Shown here: piece after piece, positions 6,098 to 21,340 of the stretch
Layout of the letters: the number at the start of each line of letters is the position of its first letter
Numbering within the stretch: position 1 is the stretch's first letter
Assembly: GCA_048886185.1 (NCBI GenBank)
Contig: JBHLKY010000025.1
Span: 21,125 to 53,124, forward strand
Direction: 5' to 3'
DNA: 32,000 bases
From: Candidatus Hermodarchaeota archaeon
Lineage (GTDB): Archaea > Asgardarchaeota > Heimdallarchaeia > Hodarchaeales > Hodarchaeaceae
Notes under the pieces: model-generated
What the model was told of the DNA's origin: nothing
The model's database searches: none
What the model saw: only the letters and a program-made list of their open reading frames with translations
Made by a program: the position numbers and the translations under genes

Positions 6098-6556
6098 TTA
6101 TTTTTGCTTTAATATTTCTAATGCCTTTACAGCTCCAAGTATAATTGCTTCTGGTTTAGGTGGGCACCCTGGAACTTTGATATCAGTATTAACAAGATTA
6201 ACTACAGGAGCGCGAACAGAATACCCATCTTTAGCAAAAATACCTCCACTACACGCACATGTCCCAATTGCAACAACAACTTTCGGTTCTGGGACTTGAC
6301 TAACTACCCTCTTAAAGGATTCTACTAATTGTGCTGGAACAGTTCCAGTTACTAATAGAATATCACTATGGCGCGGATTATTCATTAATTTCATGCCAAA
6401 ACGTTCAATGTCATATCGGGGAGTAATACAAGCAGCAACTTCAATATCACAGCCATTACAACCACCACAAGGCATATGGTAAACCCAAGGAGACTTTTTC
6501 CGTGCCCACGAAATAATTTTATCAAGAGATCCGAAATTCTTCTTGTTTTTTATCAT
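6098..6556 (-). CDS. Group 4 [NiFe] hydrogenase small subunit (HycG/EchC/NuoB-like)
   Basis: SPW...CGGCNGCDIE, NPRHSDILLVTG, IGTCACSGG, VPGCPPKPE; GAGGT upstream. Confidence 0.93.
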   Translation of the reverse strand: MIKNKKNFGSLDKIISWARKKSPWVYHMPCGGCNGCDIEVAACITPRYDIERFGMKLMNNPRHSDILLVTGTVPAQLVESFKRVVSQVPEPKVVVAIGTCACSGGIFAKDGYSVRAPVVNLVNTDIKVPGCPPKPEAIILGAVKALEILKQK

Positions 6557-6567
6557 TAAATTCTACC

Positions 6568-7230
6568 TCAATGCCTTAAAGTGGCATAATCCATCACTAA
6601 AACGGATCCAGTTGCTTTATATTGCCCATTTATGACTGATACGAAAATTATAGCGATGAAAATCTGTAGTCCGTTTAGTATAATCGATATTGCTGGTGTC
6701 ACAAGACCAAGTGAATTGATTACAATATGTGCTCCATTTTGGATAGCCAATAAACCAACTCCTGTCTTAAAGAGATTATTCTCTGTAATCACTAGAGCAA
6801 AACCAAGAATCAAAATCATACTTCCCAAAGTAAGAACTGAAATTTCTATCTGAGAGGTTATTATAGTAGGAAAGACATTCATGATAACGAAATAGCAGGA
6901 TCCGAGAACAACGAGAAAGATTTCATAAACTACCATGGAAGAAAAGATCTTTCGGGTTGGTTCATTTGTAGTTTTATAAATACACACCCATAAGATACTA
7001 GCGGAAATGATGACTGAAAGAATTGTTACGATGTTGGATATCACATGAGGACTGATGATCAAGCTATTATCCTCCATCTCAAGGCTCAAATAAATATTGG
7101 AAAGTAATAAGGTAACTATCATCCAATAGAGGCTGTTAGTTGGTCGTTTAGCCTGGTAGGAGAAAATACCTGGTATATTAAGCATAAGGGCCATAAGTAG
7201 ATTTAATTGGAGAAATGCCATTATCAACAC
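6568..7230 (-). CDS. hyfE: HyfE-like (NuoJ/K-related) membrane subunit
   Basis: Several hydrophobic helices. C-terminal half NNLFKTGVGLLAIQNGAHIV...GSVLVMDYATLRH parallels HyfE (RNILRQIFGYCLMENGSHLV...GTLDVNNLTALKG, recalled from memory). Lies inside the hydrogenase operon. Confidence 0.7.
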   Translation of the reverse strand: MLIMAFLQLNLLMALMLNIPGIFSYQAKRPTNSLYWMIVTLLLSNIYLSLEMEDNSLIISPHVISNIVTILSVIISASILWVCIYKTTNEPTRKIFSSMVVYEIFLVVLGSCYFVIMNVFPTIITSQIEISVLTLGSMILILGFALVITENNLFKTGVGLLAIQNGAHIVINSLGLVTPAISIILNGLQIFIAIIFVSVINGQYKATGSVLVMDYATLRH

Positions 7231-7788
7231 CTAATACAGTTTTTTTATATGTAAACCTAATTCATTTGCTTTCATTTTACGACATTTTGGGCAGTAAAGA
7301 CGGGCTATTTCAAATTCATTACGAATGATTTTTCTCTTGTTCTCATCTATAATTGGTGTATCCTCGAGTTTCTTTTGTATCCAATCAAGATGTTTAATTG
7401 TTGCAAAAGATTCCTTACAGTTTTCACATAACTGCATATCAAGGATTATTATTAATTCAGAAGTATCCTGATCAGCTTGAACACTCATATCAAAAACCTG
7501 ACTCATTTCTAATGATTCTGTTGGACAGCTTTTTACACATGTTTCACAAAAAATACATGCTCCAGGATCATAATATAAATACCTTTTACTCTCATTATCA
7601 ACGAATTTATAAGCAAAGGAAGGACATACTTGTAAACAGGCACCACAGCCAATACATGTATCTTGGTCAAGCTGAACTTTACCCTTGAATCCTTTTGGTA
7701 AATGATCAGGCGGAGAAGCGGGAAATTTAGTTGTAGAAGGATTTAAGAATGATTTAAAGACCTCTACTACTGTTTTAATATTTGGCAT
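7231..7788 (-). CDS. 2x[4Fe-4S] hydrogenase subunit (HycF/NuoI-like) with C-terminal CxxC...CxxC metal site
   Basis: T-x-x-FP start motif (TTKFP), CIGCGACLQVCP, CIFCETCVKSCP, plus CENC and CPKC. Confidence 0.9.
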   Translation of the reverse strand: MPNIKTVVEVFKSFLNPSTTKFPASPPDHLPKGFKGKVQLDQDTCIGCGACLQVCPSFAYKFVDNESKRYLYYDPGACIFCETCVKSCPTESLEMSQVFDMSVQADQDTSELIIILDMQLCENCKESFATIKHLDWIQKKLEDTPIIDENKRKIIRNEFEIARLYCPKCRKMKANELGLHIKKLY

Positions 7789-7819: not shown

Positions 7820-8821
7820 TCAAATATTTGTAGTGATAACTAGTAAAAGTGGATCTACAAGTGCTAAAACAACAATGCTTGTGAGGACTATTTTAAATGC
7901 TTGATCTATTCTAAATCGTGGACTAATTGCATCAATGAAGCTTATTACAAAAACTAACCCAAAACATTTAATGAGAAAAACAATAATATTAAGAGGAACT
8001 TGAAGATTATTACCACCACCAAGGAAAATAAGTGTGAAAAGACCAGAAAAAGCAAACCACATAATATATTTTGTAACCACGATCAAACCTAGAAGAGCTC
8101 CACTGTATTCTGTGAGTGGGCCATCTATAATTTCCTGACGGGCCTCAACCATATCAAAAGGACGAATACCAAGCTTAACAATTAAACAAACCAGAACTGC
8201 GACGGCTGCGAATGGAAATTTAAAGATGAACCACATAGAATTGGTTTGTACCTCCTCAATTGCCGCAAAGTTGAAAGCACCGAGAATATTCTGTTGTAAC
8301 ATAAATAAGCTTGGTGTCAATAGAGCGAGGGCAAGTGGTAATTCAACCGCAATGATCATAGATCCCTCTCGACTTGCGCCAACTGTTGAAAATGGATTAC
8401 CTGAAGCTGTACCACCAATAATTAGTCCAATAGCTGGAAAGAGTAAGAATGTTATTACTAGGACTAGATCTCCGTACTCTAGCAATTCACCTAGTCCACT
8501 CAGAAATGATTCTCCAAGTAGTCTGATTGGAAAAAGAAGGCATACCATATATGCCCCTGTTAGAGCAATTAAGGGACCCAAATAAAAGTAAAAACGATTC
8601 GCTGTTACTGGTACTATCTGATCTTTAGAGAAAAGTTTGAGGAGATCACTCCAAGACTGGCTGAATGGGGGACCACGCCGAGATTGAAAACGAGCTATTA
8701 CCTTTCTGTTGAACCAGGACATTACTCCTCCAAAAAAGATGGCACCTATCAGGCCTGGGAAGATCAATATGTCAAATGTTAAATATATTAGATCAATCAG
8801 GATATTAATAATTTCACTCAA
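7820..8821 (-). CDS. Membrane subunit HycD/NuoH-like
   Basis: RKVIARFQSRRGP, DLLKLFSK, NPFSTVGASRE, PFDMVEARQEIIDGPLTEYSG, PRFRIDQ. Confidence 0.93.
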   Translation of the reverse strand: MSEIINILIDLIYLTFDILIFPGLIGAIFFGGVMSWFNRKVIARFQSRRGPPFSQSWSDLLKLFSKDQIVPVTANRFYFYLGPLIALTGAYMVCLLFPIRLLGESFLSGLGELLEYGDLVLVITFLLFPAIGLIIGGTASGNPFSTVGASREGSMIIAVELPLALALLTPSLFMLQQNILGAFNFAAIEEVQTNSMWFIFKFPFAAVAVLVCLIVKLGIRPFDMVEARQEIIDGPLTEYSGALLGLIVVTKYIMWFAFSGLFTLIFLGGGNNLQVPLNIIVFLIKCFGLVFVISFIDAISPRFRIDQAFKIVLTSIVVLALVDPLLLVITTNI

Positions 8822-10101
8822 GAATTCAACCTTCTAAAGTTTTTGATATTATTTTGAGCAAGTTCTCTTAACGAAAGTTGTTTTGTTTTATTTCCATTAA
8901 TATCTTTAATAAAAATCACTCGATCAGTACAGGAAAGACAAGGGTCGATGCTTCCAAAGATTATTGGTGCATCAGCAATAGTATATCCTTTTAACATTGA
9001 AGGAACGGCATAATTATTTATTAAAGATGGTGTCCTAATTCGTACTCTTTCAGGACAGGCTGTATCATTAGTAATAATATGATATGCTAATTCACCACGA
9101 GGAGGTTCGCTTTTGAATAAAGCTTCTATGCCACTTTCTATTGGTGGTAGACTCTCAAGTGCGATCTCATTACTTGAACTATCAGAGAGTTTATCCAAAC
9201 TTTGATCAATGATCGAAAGACTCTCAAAGAGCTCGTGAACACGGACGACTAATCGGGCGAGAACGTCACCATCCTTTTGAACACAGATTTTCCAATCAAG
9301 TTCATCATATGCCAAGATTGGACTGTCTTTTCTTGAATCAATGTTCAATCCAGAAGCCCTAGCTACTGGACCAACAACACCAAATCTCCGTGCATCATTA
9401 GAAGTAGTGACTCCTATACCTTTAAGGCGAGATTCTACTATTCGATCGGATAATGCTTGTGATGCGATATTACTAACTATTTTCTTAACTTCTCGTGTCA
9501 TTTTACGAATCTTAGGAATCAAATCATTCGGAATGTCCCGTCGGACGCCACCAATTGTCTGCATTCCATAATTGACCCTATTTCCAGAAATCAACTCCAA
9601 TAAATCCATCACAGCTTCACGATCACGCCAAGAGTGCATAAAAAGTGTCTCAAAACCTATTAAATCAGCTGCCACACCAAGCCATAGTAAATGGGAGTGC
9701 AATCGTTCTAATTCAAGAAAGATGGTTCTGATATATCGTGCTCGATCAGGAATTTCAGATTCTACTCCTAAAAGTCGTTCCACACAACCAGTATATGTAG
9801 TTGCATGATGATTGCTACAAATCCCGCAAACTCGTTCTGCTATGAATATATTGCGATTATAATTTCTTTTTTCCATAATATGTTGAATTCCTCTATGACT
9901 GAATCCAACTTTGATATTTGCCTCAATGATTGTTTCACCATCACAGTGGAGAGTTAAGAAAACTGGTTCAATCAATGCAGGATGGAATGGACCAATAGGA
10001 ACAGTTAAAACTCTTTTAATTTCTGAAGTGGGAATTTCTATTGGTTCTTGATTTTTCTTTGCGCTCATTCTCATCATCTCAGGATACTTTTGGCCATTCA
10101 T
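8818..10101 (-). CDS. Group 4 [NiFe] hydrogenase large subunit
   Basis: PIGPFHPALIEP, L1 ERVCGIC, EPPRGE, L2 DPCLSCTDR followed by a 33-aa extension. All four Ni-binding Cys are present. Start uncertain (10101 or the ATG ATG AGA ATG cluster just downstream). Confidence 0.95.
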   Translation of the reverse strand: MNGQKYPEMMRMSAKKNQEPIEIPTSEIKRVLTVPIGPFHPALIEPVFLTLHCDGETIIEANIKVGFSHRGIQHIMEKRNYNRNIFIAERVCGICSNHHATTYTGCVERLLGVESEIPDRARYIRTIFLELERLHSHLLWLGVAADLIGFETLFMHSWRDREAVMDLLELISGNRVNYGMQTIGGVRRDIPNDLIPKIRKMTREVKKIVSNIASQALSDRIVESRLKGIGVTTSNDARRFGVVGPVARASGLNIDSRKDSPILAYDELDWKICVQKDGDVLARLVVRVHELFESLSIIDQSLDKLSDSSSNEIALESLPPIESGIEALFKSEPPRGELAYHIITNDTACPERVRIRTPSLINNYAVPSMLKGYTIADAPIIFGSIDPCLSCTDRVIFIKDINGNKTKQLSLRELAQNNIKNFRRLNS

Positions 10102-10507
10102 ATGGAAGAATCAATCGGTAAGGAGTAGGATGACCTATGAACTCAACTCCTACCATTTCACAAATTTCTCTCTCAAAAAAATTTGCTGCAGGAATCAATG
10201 GAGTAATCGATTTAATTGAAGAATTATTTGCTGGAATCCAAGTCCGTAATATAACAATAAAATTTTTTAGAATCTTTTCTAGGGAAAAGATATACATTAA
10301 CTCAATTTTATTGAATTGAATACGTGAAGCATTGATTGTAACAAGTCTAGCTTTTTGTTGAGTAAATAAATATGAAGGAACATGAGCTATACCCGATGAT
10401 TTGATTTCCACTCCATATTGGTGGGGTTGTACCTCCCAGTATTTAATAAAATCAGGTCCGCATTCTGTTTTGATTGCTTCAAGTGTTTCTTTAACAATAC
10501 TATCCAT
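10079..10507 (-). CDS. NuoC/EchD/MbhK-like hydrogenase subunit
   Basis: SITPLIPAANFFEREICEMVGVEFIGHP...RLILPYEW. Start moved from the track's 10561 to ATG 10507, which has GAGGTGA upstream. Confidence 0.88.
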   Translation of the reverse strand: MDSIVKETLEAIKTECGPDFIKYWEVQPHQYGVEIKSSGIAHVPSYLFTQQKARLVTINASRIQFNKIELMYIFSLEKILKNFIVILRTWIPANNSSIKSITPLIPAANFFEREICEMVGVEFIGHPTPYRLILPYEWPKVS

Positions 10508-10515
10508 AAAATATC

Positions 10516-10522
10516 TCACCTC
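10516..10522 (-). promoter_or_regulatory. Shine-Dalgarno GAGGTGA overlapping the stop codon of the antiporter-like gene
   Basis: Plus-strand TCACCTC at 10516-10522, 8 nt upstream of ATG 10507. Confidence 0.6.
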
Positions 10523-12401
10523 AAGCAAGTAAAACAATAGTTGCGAGAAGTATAGTTGCACCAGCTGTTATATACCAAAGATAAGAAGTTAATCGCCCCG
10601 AATGGAAAAATTTGAAAAAATTGAGAATGGGTTTTGAAGCAAATTCAAATGGTGATGAGGGGACATATATCTGGCCTAACGACAGATAAGGAGGATCATA
10701 AAGGCCTCCTGTGAATGGAAGATTTGTTGAAGAAGATGTCCTTATAGTTTCATAACTAGGAGTTTCTCTAATTGTCGGTTTTCTGCCTGATACACGGTAC
10801 AAAAGTAAACCAAAAATTAATCCAATAAGAATCAAAATTGTCGCTGAAATTGGTGAATAAACTCCCGAAATTGTCTCTTGAACCAAGATATTAGGCCAAG
10901 CACTAATAACAAATTCTTCTCCAGGTAAAAATACTGCAATACCAGGACTAACAAAGTTATTTATTATAAAATCGGGAATTACTCCTACGACTAGACAGCT
11001 AACTGAAAGTATGATCATTGGAATCGTCATTGACTTAGGAGATTCATGAATTTCGTCAAATGGAGGAAGATCAAGGTTTGGATTAATGCCAAAGAAAACT
11101 GAACTTAATAATTTCAAGAATAACACAAGAGTTAACGCTGAAACTAGAATAGCGACAATTGCATATTCAGGATGATTTGCTTCAAAAAACGCCTCATAAA
11201 GGATTCGTTTACTAGTATAACCCCCAAAAGGTGGTATACCTGAAATACTAAGACTAGCAACAACCATGGAAATCGTTGTCAATGGCATTCTTGCAGCAAT
11301 TGAGCCTAGTTTATCAATATCACGTGCTCCAGTCGAATGTTCAACGCTCCCTGCGCCCAAAAAGAGTAAACCTTTAGAAGCGGAGTGAGTAAACATATGA
11401 TATAAAGCAGCCGCTAACCCAAAAGCGGTTCCTAACGAAAAACCAATTAAAATATAGCCGATTTGTGAAACATTACAGTAAGCAAGCATACGTTTCAGAT
11501 CATTCTGTGCAAGAGCCATGATGTTGCCAATAACCATTGTTAGTATTCCAACTCCCGAGAGAAGAAATCCAATGTTCAAGAAAGATGTAGATGAAAAAAC
11601 ACTCGACAATGAATTGATGATCTTATATAACACGATAAATACCGTATATTCGGCAACAATAATCTTTCCACCAGATAAAAGAACGCTAGTGGTCACAGGT
11701 GCCTCTGAATGAGCGTCTGGAAGCCAAAAATGAAATGGAAATGCTGCAGCTTTGGTTGAAAGACCAATAAAGACTAAAGCTATCGCTACCTTCATTTCAA
11801 ATAACGAACTGGTCTGATCCCAATTGATCTCACTTAGAATAAACGTTCCAGTGACATTTTCAATGATAAATATCCCCAGAATTGTAAACACGGATGTGAA
11901 AATTGTTATGATGAGATATTTCATTGTAGCCTCTTTTGCTTCGGGTCTCCTTCCCAAACTCACGAGAATAGCGGATGTAATGGTTGTAGATTCCATAAAG
12001 ATAAATATCCAAAGTAAATTTTCCGTAAGAACAAGAAGAACCATGGATGCGATAAATAGCATGCTAAAGAAGTAATGCCAGCGGATTTGGGTTATTTGAT
12101 AAGAATAAGAGAAAATCATTGTTAAAAAACCTAAGAAAATTGGAATAAATATCACAAAGAGAGCAATTGGATGGAAATTAAACACAAATGGGAGATCATA
12201 AAAAGGAAATTCTAATCGAAAAGGTTCAGTATTAAATATCATAAGATAACTAATGCATCCAACCATAATTAATGTGATAAGACTCGAAAAAACAGTAGTG
12301 AGTTTTCTAGATATTAGAGATATAGGTAAAACCAGTATTGCTGCAACAATTGGTAGAATTAAAACAATTTCTCCTACTAACTCCATTACTGGATCTATCA
12401 T
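10521..12401 (-). CDS. Antiporter-like membrane subunit (NuoL/HycC/MrpA-D family)
   Basis: IFMEST (TM5 Glu), TKAAAFPFHFWLPDAHSEAP, ALAQNDLKRMLAY, HSASKGLLFLGAG, SISGIPPFGGYTSK. Confidence 0.93.
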   Translation of the reverse strand: MIDPVMELVGEIVLILPIVAAILVLPISLISRKLTTVFSSLITLIMVGCISYLMIFNTEPFRLEFPFYDLPFVFNFHPIALFVIFIPIFLGFLTMIFSYSYQITQIRWHYFFSMLFIASMVLLVLTENLLWIFIFMESTTITSAILVSLGRRPEAKEATMKYLIITIFTSVFTILGIFIIENVTGTFILSEINWDQTSSLFEMKVAIALVFIGLSTKAAAFPFHFWLPDAHSEAPVTTSVLLSGGKIIVAEYTVFIVLYKIINSLSSVFSSTSFLNIGFLLSGVGILTMVIGNIMALAQNDLKRMLAYCNVSQIGYILIGFSLGTAFGLAAALYHMFTHSASKGLLFLGAGSVEHSTGARDIDKLGSIAARMPLTTISMVVASLSISGIPPFGGYTSKRILYEAFFEANHPEYAIVAILVSALTLVLFLKLLSSVFFGINPNLDLPPFDEIHESPKSMTIPMIILSVSCLVVGVIPDFIINNFVSPGIAVFLPGEEFVISAWPNILVQETISGVYSPISATILILIGLIFGLLLYRVSGRKPTIRETPSYETIRTSSSTNLPFTGGLYDPPYLSLGQIYVPSSPFEFASKPILNFFKFFHSGRLTSYLWYITAGATILLATIVLLA

Positions 12402-12408
12402 AGTGTCA

Positions 12409-13236
12409 TTACCTCTGAAGTTTTATACGATGTTCCTCTAATCCAATGTCTTTTTCATCAAATCCAAATGATAAAGCAACCAATTCAGTGAGATGCATGA
12501 TTGGAAGGTCATAAATTTCTTTATTCCGTTTTAATAACAATTGTGTGTTTTCAAATTGTCTGAAACACGCTGGACAAGAAACTGCAATGATATCAGCTCC
12601 AACTAATTTAACACTTATCAATTTATTCCTTGCTCGTTCCATTATTGCCCAATCTTCATCAGTGTAAAGAGCTGGAGTACCACAACACATTTTTTCCAAA
12701 CCATACTGAACAATTTGAGCACCTGTCACACGAACAACTTCATCAAAAAGCGAGGGGAGGTTTCTCTCTTGCAATCGACAACCATAATGGCAAGCAACCT
12801 TAATATCGCTAAGAGGATTGGTTATATAATTCTTAATACGATCAATGCCTATTCTTGTTGCCAGAAATTCAGCTATTGGAAATATCCTGACATTTCCTTC
12901 GTAATTCAGCTCTAATACTTTTAACTTTTCATTTACCTTTGTAAGTTGGTTCTCATCCTTTAAAACATGATTTGCATGGCTCAAACTATGATAACAACCA
13001 TTACAAAATGTTACCATATCATTAATACCATATTGCTCAGACAAGGCAAGGTTTACACTTGAAATCAGAAGGGCTGTTTCAGAATCTAATCTTCGTGTAA
13101 GATCATTCTCAGGACAGCATGTAGCTTCTTCTATTTCTCTTAGTAAAGTTCCTAATCTTTTAAATACTACCCGAGCCGATTTTTCGACGAAAGGTTGATT
13201 GGTAGGAATATTACACCCCCAGAAAGAATTAAACAT
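12409..13236 (-). CDS. hdrB: Heterodisulfide reductase subunit B-like protein (two CCG domains)
   Basis: FWGC...TCCP...CNGC and HYGC...MCCG...CPAC; C-terminal LPIMHLTELVALSFG...IGL..H. Confidence 0.9.
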   Translation of the reverse strand: MFNSFWGCNIPTNQPFVEKSARVVFKRLGTLLREIEEATCCPENDLTRRLDSETALLISSVNLALSEQYGINDMVTFCNGCYHSLSHANHVLKDENQLTKVNEKLKVLELNYEGNVRIFPIAEFLATRIGIDRIKNYITNPLSDIKVACHYGCRLQERNLPSLFDEVVRVTGAQIVQYGLEKMCCGTPALYTDEDWAIMERARNKLISVKLVGADIIAVSCPACFRQFENTQLLLKRNKEIYDLPIMHLTELVALSFGFDEKDIGLEEHRIKLQR

Positions 13237-13496
13237 TATTCCTCACCAACTAGTTTTTTAAGCCGTTCACCCTGTAACAATTTTTCAATGTACTTTGTTG
13301 ATTCCTTCCTCTCAGGAAGCCCTATTTTCTCCCTTTTCTTCTCAATCCTTTGATTTGAAATAACAAAATATCCATTTTGTACCAATGATTTGGCATTAGA
13401 AAACATAGTCTTTGGAATTTGATTTAATTTAGATTCCGAACGAAGAGGATAGAGTGGGATGGTTTCTACCTTTTCAGGACTAGATTTTTGGGTCAT
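13236..13496 (-). CDS. hdrC: Truncated HdrC-like protein: C-terminal helical half only, no Fe-S cysteines
   Basis: SLVQNGYFVISNQRIEKKREKIGLPE...IEKLL...KKLVG resembles the HdrC C-terminus (consensus from memory: FVIKTGHxVPIN...LRKxxGLxE...VQKII...DxLIG). Has its own AGGAGA RBS and a TAATG overlap with hdrB. Confidence 0.62.
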   Translation of the reverse strand: MTQKSSPEKVETIPLYPLRSESKLNQIPKTMFSNAKSLVQNGYFVISNQRIEKKREKIGLPERKESTKYIEKLLQGERLKKLVGEE

Positions 13497-13506
13497 CAGC
13501 TTATAT

Positions 13507-13512
13507 TCTCCT
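13507..13512 (-). promoter_or_regulatory. Shine-Dalgarno AGGAGA for the mini-HdrC ORF
   Basis: Plus-strand TCTCCT at 13507-13512, 10 nt upstream of ATG 13496. Confidence 0.55.
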
Positions 13513-13514
13513 AT

Positions 13515-14906
13515 CTAATTAACAGGGGGTGCCTTTGGAATGAACCCTTTGTCCATAAGTAAGAGTGTTTGTTCCCTTGCTCTTTTGATAAGGTTTTCAG
13601 CGCGTTCAAATGCTTCCTGAGGAGTTAATTTCAATCGTGCACCTCCTTCCTTGATTGCTTGTTGTCCTACTGCAACAGCTTCTCTGGGGAATACCTCCCA
13701 CTCATCCATAGACGGTACAATATAGTCAGGGGTCAGTTCTTTGTCTTCTGCTGTTTTAGCCAATTCTTTTGCTGCAGCAATGCACATACTATCTGTGATC
13801 GTGATTCCCATCACATCTAGTGTTCCACGGAAGATTCCAGGAAATCCTAAGCTGTTATTCACCTGATTTGGAAAATCAGATCGTCCTGTAGCTATTATAA
13901 TAGCTCCAGCTTCTTTTGCTTCCCAGGGCCATATTTCAGGCACAGGATTCGCGCAAGCAAATACAATAGGCTCATCCGCCATTGCTTGAATCCACTCTGG
14001 TTTTATTGTTCCAGGTCCAGGTTTGCTGGCCGCGATTACAATGTCAGTGTCTTTCATTCCCTCTAGTACATCCCCTTCTCTGCCCTCGCTATTAGAGTTA
14101 ATGCACATATCCCACTTCAAGTCATAGATATTCTTTTTTTGTTCAATATCATGTCTTTCAGGGTGTAAAATCCCTTTAGAATCCATCATAATGACATTCT
14201 TCTTAGGAATACCTGCAGCTTCCATAACTCTAACAACAGCCATATTAGCTGCCCCTGCTCCAACCATGGAAAAAAGTGTCTCATCTAATTTTTTATTTAC
14301 ATATTTTAAAGCGTTAAATACAGCGGCAATAATTATAGTTGCAGTACCTTGTTGATCATCATGCCATACTGGTATTCGAACATCTCTAGCATTACGCAAG
14401 CTATCAAGAATCTTGAAGCATTTGGGTTGAGAAATATCTTCTAGATTGATTCCACCAAAAGTAGGTTGAAGCCATTTTACTGCTGCAATAATTTCATCGG
14501 CATCATGACAATCTAAGCAAACAGGAAAGGCATCAACTCCTCCTAAATATTTAAACAGTAATGCTTTGCCCTCCATAACTGGCATCGCAGCTTCAGGGCC
14601 TATATTACCCAATCCTAGAACCCTACTTCCATCAGAAACAACTGCAACATTATTCCACTTATTTGTCAATTCGTATGCAGTGAATGGTCTGAACTTCTTT
14701 GTAACCTTTATTTCTTCTTCGATAATTCTGCAAGGCCTTGCTACTCCTGGGGTGTACCAAACAGCAAAATCATCAAAATTATCAATTTTAACTTTCGAGA
14801 CGACCTCAATTTTTCCTCGATAGAAAGGATGCCATGCTTCAGCTCGACGGTTTGGAAGGTCTGCTTTTTTAAGTAGTTCTTCAACATTAACTTTTTCTTT
14901 TGCCAT
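13515..14906 (-). CDS. NAD(P)-dependent malic enzyme (archaeal type)
   Basis: YTPGVA, VAVVSDGSRVLGLGNIGP, MEGKALLFK, INLEDISQPKCF, HDDQQGTA, GAGAA, ANPVPEI, ATGRSDFPNQVNNSLGFPGIFRG. Confidence 0.96.
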   Translation of the reverse strand: MAKEKVNVEELLKKADLPNRRAEAWHPFYRGKIEVVSKVKIDNFDDFAVWYTPGVARPCRIIEEEIKVTKKFRPFTAYELTNKWNNVAVVSDGSRVLGLGNIGPEAAMPVMEGKALLFKYLGGVDAFPVCLDCHDADEIIAAVKWLQPTFGGINLEDISQPKCFKILDSLRNARDVRIPVWHDDQQGTATIIIAAVFNALKYVNKKLDETLFSMVGAGAANMAVVRVMEAAGIPKKNVIMMDSKGILHPERHDIEQKKNIYDLKWDMCINSNSEGREGDVLEGMKDTDIVIAASKPGPGTIKPEWIQAMADEPIVFACANPVPEIWPWEAKEAGAIIIATGRSDFPNQVNNSLGFPGIFRGTLDVMGITITDSMCIAAAKELAKTAEDKELTPDYIVPSMDEWEVFPREAVAVGQQAIKEGGARLKLTPQEAFERAENLIKRAREQTLLLMDKGFIPKAPPVN

Positions 14907-14936
14907 AAGTTAAAACTCCTTGTCAAATCTTTCAAT

Positions 14937-15422
14937 TCATACTCTTATGTTTTCCATTATTCTTAATACTTCAGTACGAGGCAGAAAACGAATTGCCTCA
15001 ACCGAACACACATCGACACACTGGGGATCACCATCACATAAATCACATTTATAGCTTAGATGAGTTTCAGGGTGAAACCAAGCAATACTCAAAGAACAAG
15101 CAAAGGTACAACTACGACAACCTATACACATTAACTCATTTAGAAAAACACGTCCATTTGCTTCCTTCTGAATTGCTCCACTTGGACAAACAATTTGACA
15201 AGGAGCTGGATCACAATGGATGCAAAGGGCAGCAGAAAATACTAAATGAGTACTTTCTTCCCCTTGTTTGAAAACTATTTTTGAACTGATTGTAATATTA
15301 CTCAAATTAAAGCTTAGTTGACAATGATGGTGTAAAGAGCAAGCAGATTCACAGTATCTGCATCCTGTACACTTTTCATCATCAAAAAATAAAACTTTAT
15401 CCTCAGCTATAGGAGATTTCAT
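14937..15422 (-). CDS. 4x[4Fe-4S] electron-transfer protein (HycB/CooF/DmsB family)
   Basis: CTGCRYCESAC, CIHCDPAPCQIVCP, CIGCRSCTFAC, KCDLCDGDPQCVDVC. Confidence 0.92.
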   Translation of the reverse strand: MKSPIAEDKVLFFDDEKCTGCRYCESACSLHHHCQLSFNLSNITISSKIVFKQGEESTHLVFSAALCIHCDPAPCQIVCPSGAIQKEANGRVFLNELMCIGCRSCTFACSLSIAWFHPETHLSYKCDLCDGDPQCVDVCSVEAIRFLPRTEVLRIMENIRV

Positions 15423-15735: not shown

Positions 15736-16236
15736 GTGATTGAGATTTTGACATTCTTAGAAGAATTATCCGAGTTTATACAGGAAGGTCGTCGTCATAA
15801 ATTATCAATCTTTTGCATTGGTAATGTCCTTAAAGGCGATGATGCCTTGGGCCCCATTATTGCAAAAAAACTACAAGGACAGATTTCATCAGACGTTTTA
15901 TTGTTTGATACGGGTTCACAACCTGAAAATTTTATTACTGAACTTAGAAGAAATAATATATCACATTGTTTAATGATTGATGCTCTGGAATTTAAAGGTA
16001 AACCTGGGAATATTGGTTTTTTTGACCCAACTGAGGTGAGTGATTTTTATGGAACATTCTCAACCCATTATCTTTCAATGAAATCTTTGATAGATTTTAT
16101 GATACAACAAACAGGTAGTAAATTCAGGATACTTGGTATTCAACCATTGACCTTAGAAATCGGTAAACAAGTCTCCACTCCTGTTCAAAACTCAATTGAA
16201 AGATTAATTAAACTATTGAAACAACTTCTTGAATAG
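15736..16236 (+). CDS. hycI: Hydrogenase maturation protease, HycI-like
   Basis: CIGNVLKGDDALG, GSQPENF, IDALEF, STHYLSM, ILGIQP. Confidence 0.88.
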   Translation: MIEILTFLEELSEFIQEGRRHKLSIFCIGNVLKGDDALGPIIAKKLQGQISSDVLLFDTGSQPENFITELRRNNISHCLMIDALEFKGKPGNIGFFDPTEVSDFYGTFSTHYLSMKSLIDFMIQQTGSKFRILGIQPLTLEIGKQVSTPVQNSIERLIKLLKQLLE

Positions 16237-16530
16237 AATAGTTTTAGGTCTAATTAGGAAATCAAAACTGTTGAAGTCTAACTGTCTTATATTCAATCTT
16301 AAATAGATAAAACAGTTCATTCGGTATTTCTTTGAATTTCTTATTCTACTGGTACTACAATAAGATAATCAAATAATTTGAGAAAATTATTTAAAGATTA
16401 ATCTTTATCATACTTGAATTGTCCTAAGAACGTATTCGACGATGTATTCTTCACAATATAACCATAAAATAACTCTAGTTTTAATTAACTATTATTATAT
16501 TGACGATTGTTAAGGAATGTCTTAAAAAAA

Positions 16531-16655
16531 GGTTTCAGGGGAAAGAGCAAAGAGTCTGCTGGTAAACACAAACCTTCATTTGTGCTTAAATCCCTGCACT
16601 AAAGAAACTGGCAATGAGTTATTCCTTGGGATGCCAAAACCAGCTAATCTCTGGT
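16531..16655 (+). ncRNA. Candidate structured cis-regulatory RNA or small RNA upstream of hdrD
   Basis: GC-richer patch inside an AT-rich spacer, with hand-found pairings CAGGG/CCCTG, AGCA/TGCT, TAA-CACAAA/TTTGTG-TTA, TGGCA/TGCCA and ACCAG/CTGGT. No known family recognised. Confidence 0.25.
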
Positions 16656-16728
16656 ATTCTTATCGAAAACAGGATATAAAATTTTTTAATTACAAATAGC
16701 ATAGTGAAAAACATCGAAGTGGATTATA

Positions 16729-17892
16729 ATGAGTGAATCTTCAAGGTATTTAATACCAAATTTAGAGTTTCGAAAAAGAATTGTCCAAATGTCTCAAGAG
16801 AACCTCAATTTCTGTTATCAGTGTTCTAATTGTACTGGAATCTGTCCTTTAAATATGGTATCCTCATTTAACCCTAGGGAACTCATTCATTTAGGGCAAA
16901 TTGGTTTAGAATTAGAACATTCAGAGGTTGAGAAACTCTGGCGTTGTACAACATGTGCAGCTTGTGAAAGCATGTGTCCTAAAGAAGTAAAGATTATCGA
17001 TATAATTACAGCACATCGATCTCAAGCGGTAGAAATTGGGGAAAAAATTCCTTATACCTATACACAGACTTTACAATCTTTTTATACATATGGAAATCCA
17101 TTTAATTTAAGATCTGCCGAACGTGCCGATTGGGCAAAGGGTCTAGATGTACCTGTTGCGAAAAAAGGAACTGATATTCTTTACTTTGTTGGATGTACTG
17201 CATCTTACGATCCTAGATCTCAAAAAATAGCTCGTGCCTTATCAGCGATTTTTAAACATGCAAAACTGAATTTTGGTATCGCAGGTAAGGATGAAAGAGA
17301 ATGTGGCAATTGTATTAATTTTATGGGTGAATCATTATTAAGTGATTTTGAAAGGGAAAGAAATGAGAAAATAATTCAAGAAGTTCAGCCCTCAATTATC
17401 GTTACTACCTCACCCCATTCGTTTAACTTCTTTAAAACGAGGTATAATCTTCCAGAACATTCTAACGTGTATCATTACACTCAATTTTTAGATGAACTCA
17501 TAAAAGATGGCAGACTTGAACTAGAAAAATCGTTACCAGACACAACTGTAACTTACCATGATGCCTGTTATCTAGGAAGGCATAATGATGTTTATGATGA
17601 ACCTCGAAGAGTCTTAAAGGCGATTCCTGGTTTAAAATTGGTGGAAATGAAAAATAATCGTCAATTAGGCATATGTTGTGGCGGTGGAGGTGGAAATGTC
17701 TGGGCTGAAACTAATGTTGAAGAACGGCTTTCCATACCAAGACTGAATGAAGCACTAGAAGTAAATGCAACAATCTTGGCTTCAGCATGTTATTTCTGCT
17801 TAACAATGTTTGAAGATGCAAGAAAAGTGACAAATCATGAACAAGATATAGAAACGAAGGATATAGCTGAAATAGTTGCCGATGTTCTGTGA
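16729..17892 (+). CDS. hdrD: HdrD-like Fe-S oxidoreductase (2x[4Fe-4S] plus CCG domains)
   Basis: CYQCSNCTGICP, CTTCAACESMCP, GNPF, YFVGC, YHDACYLGR, ICCGGGGG, ACYFC. Confidence 0.85.
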   Translation: MSESSRYLIPNLEFRKRIVQMSQENLNFCYQCSNCTGICPLNMVSSFNPRELIHLGQIGLELEHSEVEKLWRCTTCAACESMCPKEVKIIDIITAHRSQAVEIGEKIPYTYTQTLQSFYTYGNPFNLRSAERADWAKGLDVPVAKKGTDILYFVGCTASYDPRSQKIARALSAIFKHAKLNFGIAGKDERECGNCINFMGESLLSDFERERNEKIIQEVQPSIIVTTSPHSFNFFKTRYNLPEHSNVYHYTQFLDELIKDGRLELEKSLPDTTVTYHDACYLGRHNDVYDEPRRVLKAIPGLKLVEMKNNRQLGICCGGGGGNVWAETNVEERLSIPRLNEALEVNATILASACYFCLTMFEDARKVTNHEQDIETKDIAEIVADVL

Positions 17893-17908
17893 TTTAAACT
17901 AAGAAGAG

Positions 17909-19897
17909 ATGATAATAATGGAAACTGGACGAATAGGAGTCTTTATTTGTCATTGTGGTACAAATATAGCTGGAAAAATATCTATTGAGAAATTAAAGAA
18001 TTTTGCTAAAACTCTTCCACACGTGGTAACTGCTAGTGATACCACATATACATGCAGTGAGGTAGGCCAGGCTTCGATTCAAGATGCTATTAGTGAACAT
18101 AAACTTACGCATGTTGTTGTAGCTGCATGTTCCCCAAGTATGCACGAAAAAACATTTCGTAGTACTATTGAAAAAAGTGGCCTGAATCCTTACATGTTAG
18201 CGATTGCTAATATCCGCGAAATGAACACTTGGGTTACTGAGGATTCAGAAGAAAGTTTAGAAAAGGCTAAAAAGATAGTAGCTGCGGCTGTGAGGAGAGT
18301 TATTAATCATGAAGCATTAGTGGAAGACAAGCTTGCTGTTACCCCACGAATTGTCGTTGTCGGTGCAGGTATTGCTGGAATAGAGGCCTCGCTCCAACTG
18401 GCAAACGCTGATAAGGAGGTTATTTTAGTTGAACGAGAGCCATCAATAGGTGGCCAAATGGCTCGATTTGATAAAACTTTTCCAACATTAGATTGTGCCT
18501 CATGTATTCTTACTCCAAAGATGGTTGAGGTTGGACAACATCCAAACATTAACCTAATGACCTATAGTGAAGTGGAGGATTTTTCAGGTGTTCCAGGTCA
18601 ATATAATGTTAAAATTCGAAAGAAAGGTAGATCCATTGATGAAGAATTATGTACAGGGTGCGGAATTTGTGAAGAGAAATGTCCTATTAAAAGAATACCA
18701 AGCGAGTTTTATATGGGACTTAGAAATAGAAAAGCTGTTTATCGGCCTTTTCCGCAAGCTGTACCCCAGTACCCTGTTATCGATCGGGAAAATTGCACCT
18801 ATTATTTAAAAGGGAAATGTAGGATATGTGAAAAGGAGTGTCCAACTGGAGCTATTGCTTTTGATCAAGAGGATACAATAGTAGAGATCGAAGCAGGAGC
18901 CATCATCTTAGCCACTGGTTATGAACCATACAATCCTTCAAACATTACCCAATATCGTTATGGAGAGTACGATAATGTTTTTCGAGAAATAGAAGTTGAG
19001 ACAATGCTTAATGCTTCTGGTCCGACTGGTGGTGAGTTTCTACTTCGAAAGGATGGACAGTTTACTGAGGAGTCCCCAAAATCCGTCGGAATTATTCATT
19101 GTGTTGGTTCAAGAGATGCGAACTATAATCCTTATTGTTCGCGAGTCTGTTGCATGTATTCTTTAAAATTTGCCCATTTAATTAAAGAACGAACCGATGC
19201 AGCGATATTCCAATTCTATATCGATATTAGAGCATTTGGTAAGGGTTATGAAGAGTTCTATGATCGTCTACAAAAGGAAGGAGTGGTTTTCATCCGAGGT
19301 AAACCTGGGAAGATTTTAAAAGATAAAGATAAACTTATTGTACAAGTAGAAGACTCTCTGTCTCAAAAAGCATTACATGTCCCAGTTGATGCAGTAATTC
19401 TAAGTAGTGCGATAGTAGCACGTCCTGATGCACGTCAAGTGGCAAGCATGTTTGGTATAGGATGTGGAGCTGAAGACTTTTTCCGAGAACTTCATCCAAA
19501 ATTAGCTCCTGTAGATACCCAAGTTGATGCAATATTTTTAGCGGGAGCGTGTCAGGGGCCAAAAGATATTCCTGATGCTGTTGCACAAGGGGCAGCTGCC
19601 GCAGCAGGAGCTCTAAGACTGATATCCCGTGGTCATATTGCGATTGAACCAACTATTGCATCAATAGACGAAGACCTATGCTCCAATTGTAAGATGTGTA
19701 TATCAATTTGCCCCTATGATGCTATTGCTGAAGATACAGAGAAAAAAGTTGCTGTTTTAACTGCATCCAAATGTAAAGGGTGTGGTCTCTGTCCTTCCAT
19801 ATGTCCCTCTGGCGCTATTCATCATGCGTTCTATTCCGATGAAGCAATTTTGTCAGAAATTAAAGGGATTATTGAAACAGCTCAGTTGAAAGGGTGA
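17909..19897 (+). CDS. hdrA: Heterodisulfide reductase subunit A
   Basis: IGVFICHCG, VVGAGIAG, DKTFPTLDCASC, inserted ferredoxin, HCVGSRD, YCSRVCCM, GPKDIPDAV, C-terminal CSNCKMCISIC and CKGCGLCPSIC. Confidence 0.96.
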   Translation: MIIMETGRIGVFICHCGTNIAGKISIEKLKNFAKTLPHVVTASDTTYTCSEVGQASIQDAISEHKLTHVVVAACSPSMHEKTFRSTIEKSGLNPYMLAIANIREMNTWVTEDSEESLEKAKKIVAAAVRRVINHEALVEDKLAVTPRIVVVGAGIAGIEASLQLANADKEVILVEREPSIGGQMARFDKTFPTLDCASCILTPKMVEVGQHPNINLMTYSEVEDFSGVPGQYNVKIRKKGRSIDEELCTGCGICEEKCPIKRIPSEFYMGLRNRKAVYRPFPQAVPQYPVIDRENCTYYLKGKCRICEKECPTGAIAFDQEDTIVEIEAGAIILATGYEPYNPSNITQYRYGEYDNVFREIEVETMLNASGPTGGEFLLRKDGQFTEESPKSVGIIHCVGSRDANYNPYCSRVCCMYSLKFAHLIKERTDAAIFQFYIDIRAFGKGYEEFYDRLQKEGVVFIRGKPGKILKDKDKLIVQVEDSLSQKALHVPVDAVILSSAIVARPDARQVASMFGIGCGAEDFFRELHPKLAPVDTQVDAIFLAGACQGPKDIPDAVAQGAAAAAGALRLISRGHIAIEPTIASIDEDLCSNCKMCISICPYDAIAEDTEKKVAVLTASKCKGCGLCPSICPSGAIHHAFYSDEAILSEIKGIIETAQLKG

Positions 19898-19903
19898 TAC
19901 AAG

Positions 19904-20362
19904 ATGAGTTCAGAAGAAACTAATGGTTTTAATCCAACTATTATAGGTTTTTACTGCCGGTGGTGCACCCATGCAGCCGCAGATCTAGCTGGAACCTCTC
20001 GAATTCCAGTTTCAGCAAATATCATTGGAATTCGCGTCCCATGTTCTGGCCGTGTTGACCCTACCTTCATTTTTGATGCATTTACTAAGGGTGCGGATGG
20101 TGTTCTAATTGGTGGGTGCCACCTTGGTGATTGCCATTATGAAGAAGGGAATTTTAGTGCTTTTAAGAGGACTAAAATCCTGCAAAAAGTAATACAAGAA
20201 TTCGGTATAGAACCTGAACGTGTACGCATTGAATGGATTTCTGCGTCCGAAGCCAATAAGTACCAAAAAACTCTCAAAGAGTTCACTGAAACAATTAAAG
20301 AGCTGGGACCCCTAAATTGGGATAAACATTTACAAGAAAGGGATTATGAAATATCAGTGTGA
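19904..20362 (+). CDS. mvhD: Methyl-viologen-reducing hydrogenase delta subunit ([2Fe-2S])
   Basis: GFYCRWC..AADLAG, RVPCSGRVDP, GADGVLIGGCHLGDCHY, WISASE. Confidence 0.96.
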   Translation: MSSEETNGFNPTIIGFYCRWCTHAAADLAGTSRIPVSANIIGIRVPCSGRVDPTFIFDAFTKGADGVLIGGCHLGDCHYEEGNFSAFKRTKILQKVIQEFGIEPERVRIEWISASEANKYQKTLKEFTETIKELGPLNWDKHLQERDYEISV

Positions 20363-21339
20363 CGGTGATTATGATGAGTGAAGAGAAAGCAAAAGTAGCA
20401 TTTTACTGGGCAGCCTCATGTGGAGGTTGTGAAATTGCTGTTTTAGACTTGGATGAAGCTGTACTTGATGTAGCTGCAAAAGCAGACATTGTTTTCTGGC
20501 CTGTTGCTGTAGATACAAAATATCATGATGTTGAAGCAATGGCAGATAACTCAATTGATGTTACATTTTTCAATGGAGGTATAAGAAATTCTGAAGCAGT
20601 ACATGTAGCCAAACTTCTGCGGAAAAAATCAAAATTTCTTGTAGCTTTTGGAACCTGTGCGCACTGCGGTGGGGTTCCTGCTCTTGCCAACTTTAAAACT
20701 AAAGACGCCATTTTCGAACGCGTTTATAAAACAACACCCAGTACAAATAATCCTGAAGGAATTTATCCTCAAACTTCTCATAAAACAAGAGAAGGAGAAG
20801 TAACGATTCCTAAATTTCTTGATGCTGTTTATCCTCTTGATGCAGTAGTTCCAGTCGACTATTATGTTCCTGGATGCCCTCCCCCTAAGAAATGGATCTT
20901 AGCTGGAGTGACAGCTTTCCTAACAGGAGAGCTTCCTCCAAAAGGGTCAGTTATTGCAGAAGAATATGCTCTCTGTAAAGAATGTCCAAGAGAAAAACCA
21001 GAAAAACATTCTGTGAAAGAATTCAAGAGAGTTTGGGAAGTGATGGACATTGATTTTCAGAAGTGCTTATTAGATCAAGGGATTATTTGTTTAGGACCTG
21101 CCACTCGTGGGGGTTGTGAAGCACGTTGTATAACAACAAACTATCCCTGTCGCGGATGCTTTGGACCAGCTCCTAAAATCATTGATATGGGTGCTAAAAT
21201 GATCAGTGTTTTAGGTTCTATCATTGATGAGAAAGATGAAACAAAAATGGAACAGATTGTCGAAGACATCCCAGATCTTGCTGGGACATTATATGAATTT
21301 ACTGCAGGAAGATCAGTTTTCTTAAGGAGGAAAAAGTGA
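20359..21339 (+). CDS. mvhG: Group 3c [NiFe] hydrogenase small subunit
   Basis: ASCGGCE, GTCAHCGG, VPGCPP, LCKECP, ICLGPATRGGCEARC, PCRGCFG. Confidence 0.95.
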   Translation: MTVIMMSEEKAKVAFYWAASCGGCEIAVLDLDEAVLDVAAKADIVFWPVAVDTKYHDVEAMADNSIDVTFFNGGIRNSEAVHVAKLLRKKSKFLVAFGTCAHCGGVPALANFKTKDAIFERVYKTTPSTNNPEGIYPQTSHKTREGEVTIPKFLDAVYPLDAVVPVDYYVPGCPPPKKWILAGVTAFLTGELPPKGSVIAEEYALCKECPREKPEKHSVKEFKRVWEVMDIDFQKCLLDQGIICLGPATRGGCEARCITTNYPCRGCFGPAPKIIDMGAKMISVLGSIIDEKDETKMEQIVEDIPDLAGTLYEFTAGRSVFLRRKK

Positions 21340-21340
21340 A

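Follow-up and report, generated by a model that had tools for sequence, protein, structure and literature searches.

A cysteine-free protein encoded directly before hdrB in a Hodarchaeales hydrogenase operon: a candidate adaptor with a NuoC end and an HdrC tail

HdrC normally carries two [4Fe-4S] clusters, which pass electrons from HdrA to HdrB (PMC5861303, PMC13518236). What, then, is a protein of half that size and without a single cysteine doing in the place of HdrC? This question is raised by a stretch of 32,000 nucleotides from Candidatus Hermodarchaeota archaeon (Hodarchaeales; assembly GCA_048886185.1, contig JBHLKY010000025.1, positions 21,125 to 53,124), here called the window, in which such an open reading frame (ORF) stands directly before hdrB in an operon for a membrane-bound [NiFe] hydrogenase. 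The most probable answer is that the ORF encodes an adaptor, made of the end of NuoC and the tail of HdrC, which tethers HdrB to a group-4 [NiFe] hydrogenase, with a HycB-like protein as the wire. All positions below are those of the window. The two genes at issue are:

13236..13496, minus strand: adaptor ORF (P0001), 86 amino acids, zero cysteines; residues about 15-20 (LYPLRS) correspond to the C-terminal motif of NuoC, residues about 23-83 to the C-terminal tail of HdrC
12409..13236, minus strand: HdrB (P0002), 275 amino acids; two CCG domains, ten invariant cluster cysteines, HYGCR in place of HxGCH, and a 10-residue deletion

The adaptor ORF starts with an ATG at 13494-13496 and ends with a TAA at 13236-13238, both on the minus strand. 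Its ribosome-binding site, AGGAGA, is at 13507-13512 on the same strand, 10 nucleotides 5' of the ATG. Eighteen nucleotides lie between the ORF and the stop codon (13515-13517) of a malic-enzyme-like gene. At the other end, the final A of the TAA doubles as the first base of the hdrB ATG (13234-13236), giving TAATG. An earlier reading of the window from its letters alone (the sequence-only reading) had listed the length, the lack of cysteine, the ribosome-binding site, the gap and the overlap, and each item was verified on the sequence.

Origin of the small protein

The likeness to the C-terminal half of HdrC, which the sequence-only reading had pointed out, was borne out by a family model, by BLASTP and by a family-profile scan of Asgard genomes. 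TIGR03290 is the sole NCBIfam match of the protein, with residues 25-83 aligned to model positions 79-135 of 144 at an expectation value (E) of 5e-4. The score is 20 bits, and the curated cut-off of 160 bits is not reached. Seven of eight orthologues also match TIGR03290, the best at 1.8e-6, with no competing family of note. Residues 23-75 align to residues 96-149 of a 167-residue full-length HdrC from the same genus, with 37% identity over 54 residues (BLASTP, E 5e-10). In 400 Asgard genomes, the adaptor family profile matches the C-terminal halves of hundreds of HdrC ORFs of 165-206 residues. Compared with Hodarchaeal HdrC only, the profile gives a modest probability of 71% (hhalign).

The homology is visible only by the NCBIfam model, by profile-profile comparison and in closer full-length HdrCs. 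Pfam gave no match for the protein, the family of the NuoC alpha/beta body (PF00329) included, and PDB sequence searches with the protein or the family profile, up to an E of 10, found no HdrC chain. An alignment by eye to the solved HdrC chains pairs G-Y-F-V with G-H-A-V, REKIGLPE with RKSIGLSE, and IEKLL...LVG with LIKELGFDELIG. Set against the HdrC of HdrABC (TIGR03290; 5ODC_C, 7BKB_C, 8RVU_c), residues about 23-83 align after the second [4Fe-4S] motif, and share with it G-[YH]-x-V, R-[EK]-x-[IL]-G-L-P-E, [IV]-x-K-L-[LI] and a C-terminal L-[VI]-G. The retained part starts immediately after the last cluster cysteine, and the two CxxCxxCxxxCP motifs of the ferredoxin domain are absent. These alignments show that residues about 23-83 derive from the stretch of HdrC that is C-terminal to its two [4Fe-4S] motifs.

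Like HdrC, the protein is encoded immediately 5' of hdrB and is predicted to contact HdrB. Unlike HdrC, it lacks the ferredoxin domain, cysteines and clusters, and so can neither conduct electrons nor dock to HdrA. It is about half as long, and has an N-terminus derived from NuoC.

The missing ferredoxin half could be encoded elsewhere, as one part of a split HdrC. A whole-genome scan with TIGR03290 found no ferredoxin-only HdrC partner gene: N-terminal-type matches occur only in full HdrC, HdrC-like or HdrD-like ORFs of at least 167 residues. The split was rejected on these grounds, and the earlier claim that the ferredoxin domain is genuinely missing holds. The same contig also has a canonical hdrC-hdrB pair, with an HdrC of 167 residues, and a second pair of hdrC-like gene and hdrB.

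When searched against representatives, the Hodarchaeal adaptor profile finds three clusters only. The member of the third, P0013, was considered as a second mini form and turned out to be a contig-edge fragment of an ordinary HdrC. A 73-residue match in another genome (G378) is a contig-edge fragment too.

Is the ORF a functional gene at all? A decaying remnant of hdrC without function would be expected to look like this in two respects: there are no cluster ligands, and 20 bits is little against a 160-bit HdrC cut-off. The family consists of eight database proteins of exactly 86 residues (57-77% identity) and one of 90 residues (47%), and 24 columns are invariant across these nine orthologues. 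All nine, plus stand-alone forms from other lineages, are free of cysteine. In every recovered context the ORF immediately precedes hdrB, and both belong to the same hydrogenase operon; since nine orthologues keep this position, it is not a chance ORF.

The ratio of nonsynonymous to synonymous substitution rates (dN/dS, pairwise Nei-Gojobori) is 0.10-0.23, versus 0.10-0.20 for the adjacent hdrB. For the least saturated pair (dS 0.38) it is 0.20. The gene is under purifying selection. The sequence-only reading had proposed dN/dS and length across orthologues as a check, with relaxed selection as the mark of a pseudogene; selection is not relaxed, and lengths stay within 86-90 residues. Because dN/dS is low and close to that of hdrB, the pseudogene reading is rejected. 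Against decay there are also the conserved length, the invariant columns at 47-77% identity, the conserved ribosome-binding site and stop/start coupling, and homologous forms, free or fused, in several archaeal phyla. The functionless remnant is strongly disfavoured, to the point of being barely credible.

The densest invariant run of the family is P17, L18, R19, S20, S22, K23, N25 and P28. Of these, P17, R19 and P28 are invariant in all 13 diverse sequences. Here LYPLRS (residues 15-20) aligns with the HPLRK or YPLRK of NuoC fusions, described below, and with the YPLRT of MbhK. The pattern [YH]PLRK is a conserved C-terminal signature of the NuoC family: MbhK has ...FPEGIYPLRTDEKGV, Aquifex NuoCD has ...HYPLRKDFP and the complex I 30-kDa subunit has ...GHPLRKDF. 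What the adaptor, with ...TIPLYPLRSESKLNQIP, has in common with NuoC or the complex I 30-kDa subunit and with MbhK of the Pyrococcus membrane-bound hydrogenase (MBH; PF00329, 6CFW_K) is the motif [YH]-P-L-R-[KTS], which is C-terminal in those proteins. Unlike these proteins it holds the short motif only, and the alpha/beta body is encoded separately:

10079..10561, minus strand: NuoC-like subunit (P0080), ending in ...LPYEWPKVS, just short of the [YH]PLR[KT] motif

The Pfam match of this subunit ends at profile position 110 of 124. All nine of the checked clusters with a free adaptor have a NuoC-like or NuoC-NuoD subunit without [YH]P[LW]R[KS], which ends or changes just before it. The motif is kept in the fusions and in solved NuoC homologues (MbhK 6cfw_K, 7q5y_B, 8qby_C). 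It is also kept, as HPMRRDY, by the genome's other NuoC paralogue, whose Pfam match runs to 122 of 124.

At the level of sequence, then, the N-terminal block of the adaptor is the C-terminal motif of NuoC and the 30-kDa subunit, and it is this motif that the operon's own NuoC-like protein lacks. Residues 14-25 (IRNLA...) had also been considered to be the helix that closes the ferredoxin domain of HdrC. This was dropped in favour of NuoC on the motif comparisons and the fusion alignment. The sequence-only reading had held that only the HdrB-binding part of HdrC was kept. The HdrC tail is real, but the most conserved N-terminal block comes from NuoC, so the protein is more than an HdrC remnant.

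The fusions came from a profile search with the HdrB clade, which returned a further set of HdrB genes from other Asgard families. These loci have the order HycB-like gene, cysteine-free ORF of 88-96 residues, HdrB, hydrogenase genes, and several of the small ORFs match TIGR03290 only (E 1.8e-6 to 2.6e-5). In Ca. Baldrarchaeum (L077/L069) and Ca. Asgardarchaeum (L078/L063) the tail is instead the C-terminus of a NuoC-like protein of 221-223 residues, directly 5' of HdrB. This protein matches Complex1_30kDa (E 1.5e-26) and also TIGR03290 at positions 78-143 (E 6.6e-5 and 4.5e-6).

When one genome per prokaryotic species was scanned (fusion loci L075-L085), fusions of 218-230 residues turned up before HdrB and a [NiFe] large subunit in Bathyarchaeia, in Hadarchaeia/Hadarchaeales and in one Nitrososphaerota metagenome-assembled genome. 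They have at most 2 cysteines, and a gene for a HycB-like protein with 16-17 cysteines is usually upstream. Free forms of the adaptor also occur in Odinarchaeia. The adaptor family profile is colinear with nine fusions, residues 15-86 aligning to 137-216 at a probability of 95% (hhalign, E 3.5e-8), and this alignment begins at LYPLRS in the adaptor and at [YH]PLRK in the fusions.

As aligned, the adaptor corresponds to the last 85 or so residues of NuoC::HdrC-tail fusions that hold the same position in other archaea. Given this correspondence, gene fission is the likely origin of the adaptor. Both forms are directly upstream of hdrB, usually with a HycB-like gene further upstream. Unlike in the fusions, the adaptor has a gene of its own, and the NuoC body is encoded downstream of hdrB and an antiporter-like gene. 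No description of the NuoC::HdrC-tail architecture, which is widespread in archaea, was found in a literature coverage that is itself incomplete.

Some further observations on NuoC were made along the way. The genome has a second NuoB-NuoC-NuoD cluster (L087:362-2660, G000 contig C11), which is the one with the HPMRRDY ending; its NuoD lacks the [NiFe] cysteines (...DLCMGEIDR) and so is complex-I-like. Several Asgard clusters (L067/L070 of G089, G088; L062, L064) have NuoC fused to the large subunit, at 555-584 residues. The linker of these fusions is without the PLRK motif, which is present instead on the free adaptor. As for P0080 itself, its listed GTG start overlaps the antiporter-like gene by 41 nucleotides and gives 160 residues; orthologues have 141-143. 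The true start is probably an internal methionine (MDSIVKE...), for about 142 residues.

Predicted contact with HdrB

The HdrB of the operon has two CCG domains (Pfam, E 2.6e-22) and matches TIGR03288 (E 6.9e-64). Its best solved relatives are the HdrB chains 8RVU_b (E 7e-51) and 5ODC_B (E 6e-49). An alignment of 21 homologues shows no variation at the ten cysteines that ligate the two non-cubane clusters of HdrB.

A complex of the adaptor and HdrB was predicted from this 21-row alignment for HdrB and nine rows for the adaptor, as the sequence-only reading had proposed. Over three runs the median ipSAE (interaction prediction score from aligned errors) is 0.64 (0.57-0.70); the best of three controls scores 0.00. 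The mark used for ipSAE is attained by 58 of 80 solved complexes and by 2 of 110 mismatched pairs. The runs have at least 47% of their contacts in common, and the partner's predicted local distance difference test (pLDDT) is 47-58. The confident interface joins adaptor residues 31-79 to HdrB residues 8-22, 36-47, 54-61, 104-110 and 263-268. The HdrC-like part is thereby placed on HdrB, and the invariant run around YPLRS sits outside. The model supports binding without proving it.

The free adaptor has a pLDDT of 0.41 in the ESM Atlas and no fold is predicted for it; there was no usable feature match, and structure neighbours are meaningless. Such a result would be expected of an arm that acquires its fold on a partner.

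HdrB itself appears to have changed as well. HdrBs paired with the cluster-free adaptor in the window's clade have HYGCR, CCPENDL and CCGTPALY, and about 10 residues are missing after HxGC (HdrB 150-165). HdrBs paired with full HdrC have H[PY]GCH, CCPDPTG and CCGSAV. Judged by these motifs, HdrB in the window's clade has changed together with the disappearance of HdrC's ferredoxin domain, and the changes suggest an altered proton path or substrate.

Place in the hydrogenase operon

The remaining genes of the operon are, in the order of transcription:

14937..15422, minus strand: HycB-like polyferredoxin (P0076), 161 amino acids; four cysteine motifs for 4x[4Fe-4S]; proposed wire to HdrB
13515..14906, minus strand: malic-enzyme-like gene (P0003), 463 amino acids, between the HycB-like gene and the adaptor in the window's subclade only
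10521..12401, minus strand: single antiporter-like membrane subunit (NuoL/M/Mrp type), 626 amino acids
8818..10101, minus strand: [NiFe] hydrogenase large subunit (P0011), with RVCGICSNHH and DPCLSCTDR
7820..8821, minus strand: NuoH-like membrane subunit
7231..7788, minus strand: HycF/NuoI-like 2x[4Fe-4S] subunit (P0077)
6568..7230, minus strand: membrane protein of 220 amino acids with no family match; its L020 orthologue is weakly NuoK-like
6098..6556, minus strand: hydrogenase small subunit (NuoB-like)

With the genes already listed, the order on the minus strand is HycB-like, malic-enzyme-like, adaptor, HdrB, antiporter-like, NuoC-like, large subunit, NuoH-like, HycF/NuoI-like, 220-residue protein and small subunit. 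Both the L1 and L2 cysteine motifs of the [NiFe] site are intact in the large subunit, and its closest solved relatives are HycE of the E. coli formate hydrogenlyase (FHL; E 7.6e-80) and Pyrococcus MbhL. HdrB, with both CCG motifs, is encoded inside this operon, and the gene order is conserved in relatives. The protein P0076 resembles HycB of FHL. A gene for such a HycB-like protein, with 16-17 cysteines, precedes the adaptor in almost every related cluster, and the stop and start codons often overlap.

FHL (7Z0S) provides the large subunit's closest solved relative. There, a HycB-type 4x[4Fe-4S] protein joins a catalytic subunit at the periphery to the chain HycF/HycG/HycE. In FHL this peripheral enzyme is formate dehydrogenase H, in the window's operon it is HdrB, and FHL has no such adaptor. 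The HycB-like protein probably serves as the electron wire in the window's complex, in lieu of the ferredoxin domain that HdrC would have supplied.

The arrangement that fits these data best would work as follows. The HdrC-like tail (residues about 23-83) would wrap HdrB as in HdrABC, for which the fold model gives support. The YPLR block would complete, or dock onto, the module of NuoC and large subunit in trans, at the usual site of the NuoC C-terminus, and so fix HdrB to the peripheral arm. Electrons would travel between the [NiFe] site and the non-cubane clusters of HdrB by way of the small subunit, the HycF/NuoI-like protein and the 4x[4Fe-4S] HycB-like protein, in an FHL-like wire. In sum, the enzyme would reduce a disulfide with H2 and couple this to ion translocation, or run in the opposite direction.

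By its make-up the protein belongs neither to HdrC, whose clusters and family score it fails, nor to NuoC, whose body it lacks; it is a derived adaptor in a known type of complex. That it is an adaptor had been proposed from the letters alone. Selection and the HdrB model speak for this, and the idea is strengthened by the existence of natural NuoC::HdrC-tail fusions and by the NuoC motif at the N-terminus. To call the ORF 'direct evidence' of modular rewiring was an overstatement, as binding and electron path remain inferences.

Several points weigh against the tether as described. A search for RNA data on 12409-15422 brought up none, and no experimental work was found either. The NuoC-derived block is only about 6-12 residues long. 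The adaptor's own pLDDT in the complex model is low, and the fold model could reflect memory of the solved HdrBC structures 5ODC, 7BKB and 8RVU. Furthermore, the HdrB here has an arginine at the position of methanogen His154, as mapped by alignment to 8RVU_b. In methanogens this histidine and residues of the HdrC ferredoxin domain form a proton path at the HdrB-HdrC interface, and the HdrC residues of this interface and path, T79, Y81, Y84, E94 and K98, fall in the domain that is missing here (PMC13518236). With the histidine replaced and these residues gone, the active-site surroundings differ from those of methanogen HdrB. The substrate probably differs as well.

It is also conceivable, if unlikely, that the adaptor is an accessory of HdrB only, needed for its folding or its substrate pocket, that the YPLR block is a leftover of fission, and that the HycB-like protein is what holds HdrB. 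The confident model contacts are indeed limited to residues 31-79 with HdrB, the substrate pocket is formed jointly by HdrB and HdrC (PMC13261682), and relatives show translational coupling between the HycB-like gene and the adaptor ORF. A leftover would oddly be the most invariant part of the protein: the run from P17-L18-R19-S20 to P28 is the best conserved in nine orthologues, with P17, R19 and P28 kept in all 13 sequences. The cognate NuoC, moreover, always lacks exactly the YPLR motif.

The genome places a soluble Mvh/HdrA/HdrD system back to back with the membrane hydrogenase-HdrB system. A divergent operon on the plus strand (15736-22825) encodes a HycI-type protease, an HdrD-like protein of 387 residues with ferredoxin and CCG domains, HdrA, MvhD, MvhG and MvhA. 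Adaptor and HdrB might then serve this HdrA-MvhADG/HdrD system, or another soluble Hdr system, with the gene order reflecting co-regulation only. The HdrD-like, HdrA and MvhDGA genes at 16729-22825 on the opposite strand, and two further HdrB copies in the genome, would allow for that.

Three observations make it very improbable. The order of HycB-like gene, adaptor, HdrB and hydrogenase, with overlaps or gaps of a few nucleotides, is conserved from Hodarchaeales to Odinarchaeia. In the form of NuoC fusions it is kept in Bathyarchaeia and Hadarchaeia, whether or not HdrA/Mvh genes are nearby. Docking to HdrA also requires the HdrC ferredoxin domain, which is absent here.

The tether between HdrB and the hydrogenase may be an instance of something wider. 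The NuoC-end/HdrC-tail piece could be a general portable module, either fused to NuoC or free at about 90 residues, that plugs HdrB onto complex-I-type hydrogenase arms in many archaeal lineages, with the free form complementing a truncated NuoC by a strand. This generalization is put forward tentatively, with somewhat less than even confidence. If true, it would mean that the cluster-free HdrC tail, and not the ferredoxin domain, is the part indispensable to HdrB.

Related systems and neighbouring genes

HdrB-linked group-4 hydrogenases are not new. The HdrB-interacting types Ehd, Ehe, Drh and Ehg were proposed from genomes (Kohtz et al., PMC9723716; bioRxiv 10.1101/2022.04.06.487207), and Ehg is expressed in a cultured Methanonezhaarchaeon, strain YNP3N (PMC12700198). 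Asgard groups 4l and 4q are described, in the accessible part of the source, as 'with a peripheral heterodisulfide reductase domain' (Appler et al., bioRxiv 10.1101/2024.07.04.601786). The same part of that paper calls the Hodarchaeales complexes Complex-I-like and does not mention an Hdr module. Coupling of H2:disulfide chemistry to ion translocation is proposed for all these types in the available text (PMC9723716; 10.1101/2024.07.04.601786), and a biochemical assay is reported there for no member (available text of PMC9723716).

Like these systems, the window's operon combines a membrane-bound [NiFe] hydrogenase with HdrB and one antiporter-like subunit. The accessible parts of the papers speak of 'HdrBC' or an 'Hdr domain', and mention neither a cluster-free HdrC nor a NuoC-derived tether. 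No description of either was found elsewhere in the literature, of which the coverage is incomplete, so that an earlier description is possible. The hydrogenase type is thus known from genomes, and the cluster-free adaptor looks undescribed.

HdrB-linked membrane hydrogenases have been proposed to conserve energy from H2 and a disulfide in non-methanogenic archaea, including Asgard relatives of eukaryotes. None has been purified so far, and the attachment and wiring of HdrB have been left vague. The adaptor offers a concrete and testable proposal for the attachment, namely a NuoC C-terminus plus an HdrC tail. It separates the two roles of HdrC, holding HdrB and conducting electrons, and is a clear case of a respiratory complex re-plumbed by domain fission or fusion.

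For practical purposes, annotation and structure modelling of these complexes should take in the ORF of about 90 residues, which is usually labelled hypothetical or mislabelled HdrC. Those who work on anaerobic bioenergetics or on the metabolism of Asgard archaea should find the result moderately interesting, and it lends itself readily to testing.

Some minor observations concern other genes of the operon. In addition to the two [4Fe-4S] motifs, the C-terminal part of the HycF/NuoI-like subunit holds a CxxC...CxxC pair (CENC...CPKC), which may be a further metal site.

The 18-nucleotide spacing between the malic-enzyme-like gene and the adaptor is peculiar to one subclade, consisting of the window plus the P0004 and P0005 contigs, and it is a subclade-specific insertion. 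In relatives outside this subclade, the HycB-like gene abuts or overlaps the adaptor ORF, and malic enzyme genes are found nearby instead, one or two of them adjoining the cluster. The neighbourhood is a recurring one. Malic-enzyme-like genes occur in or near the cluster in the window (13515-14906, minus strand), at L023:2717-4108, on the P0004 contig, and at L016:17719-19116, L018:2733-5637 and L019:5048-7952.

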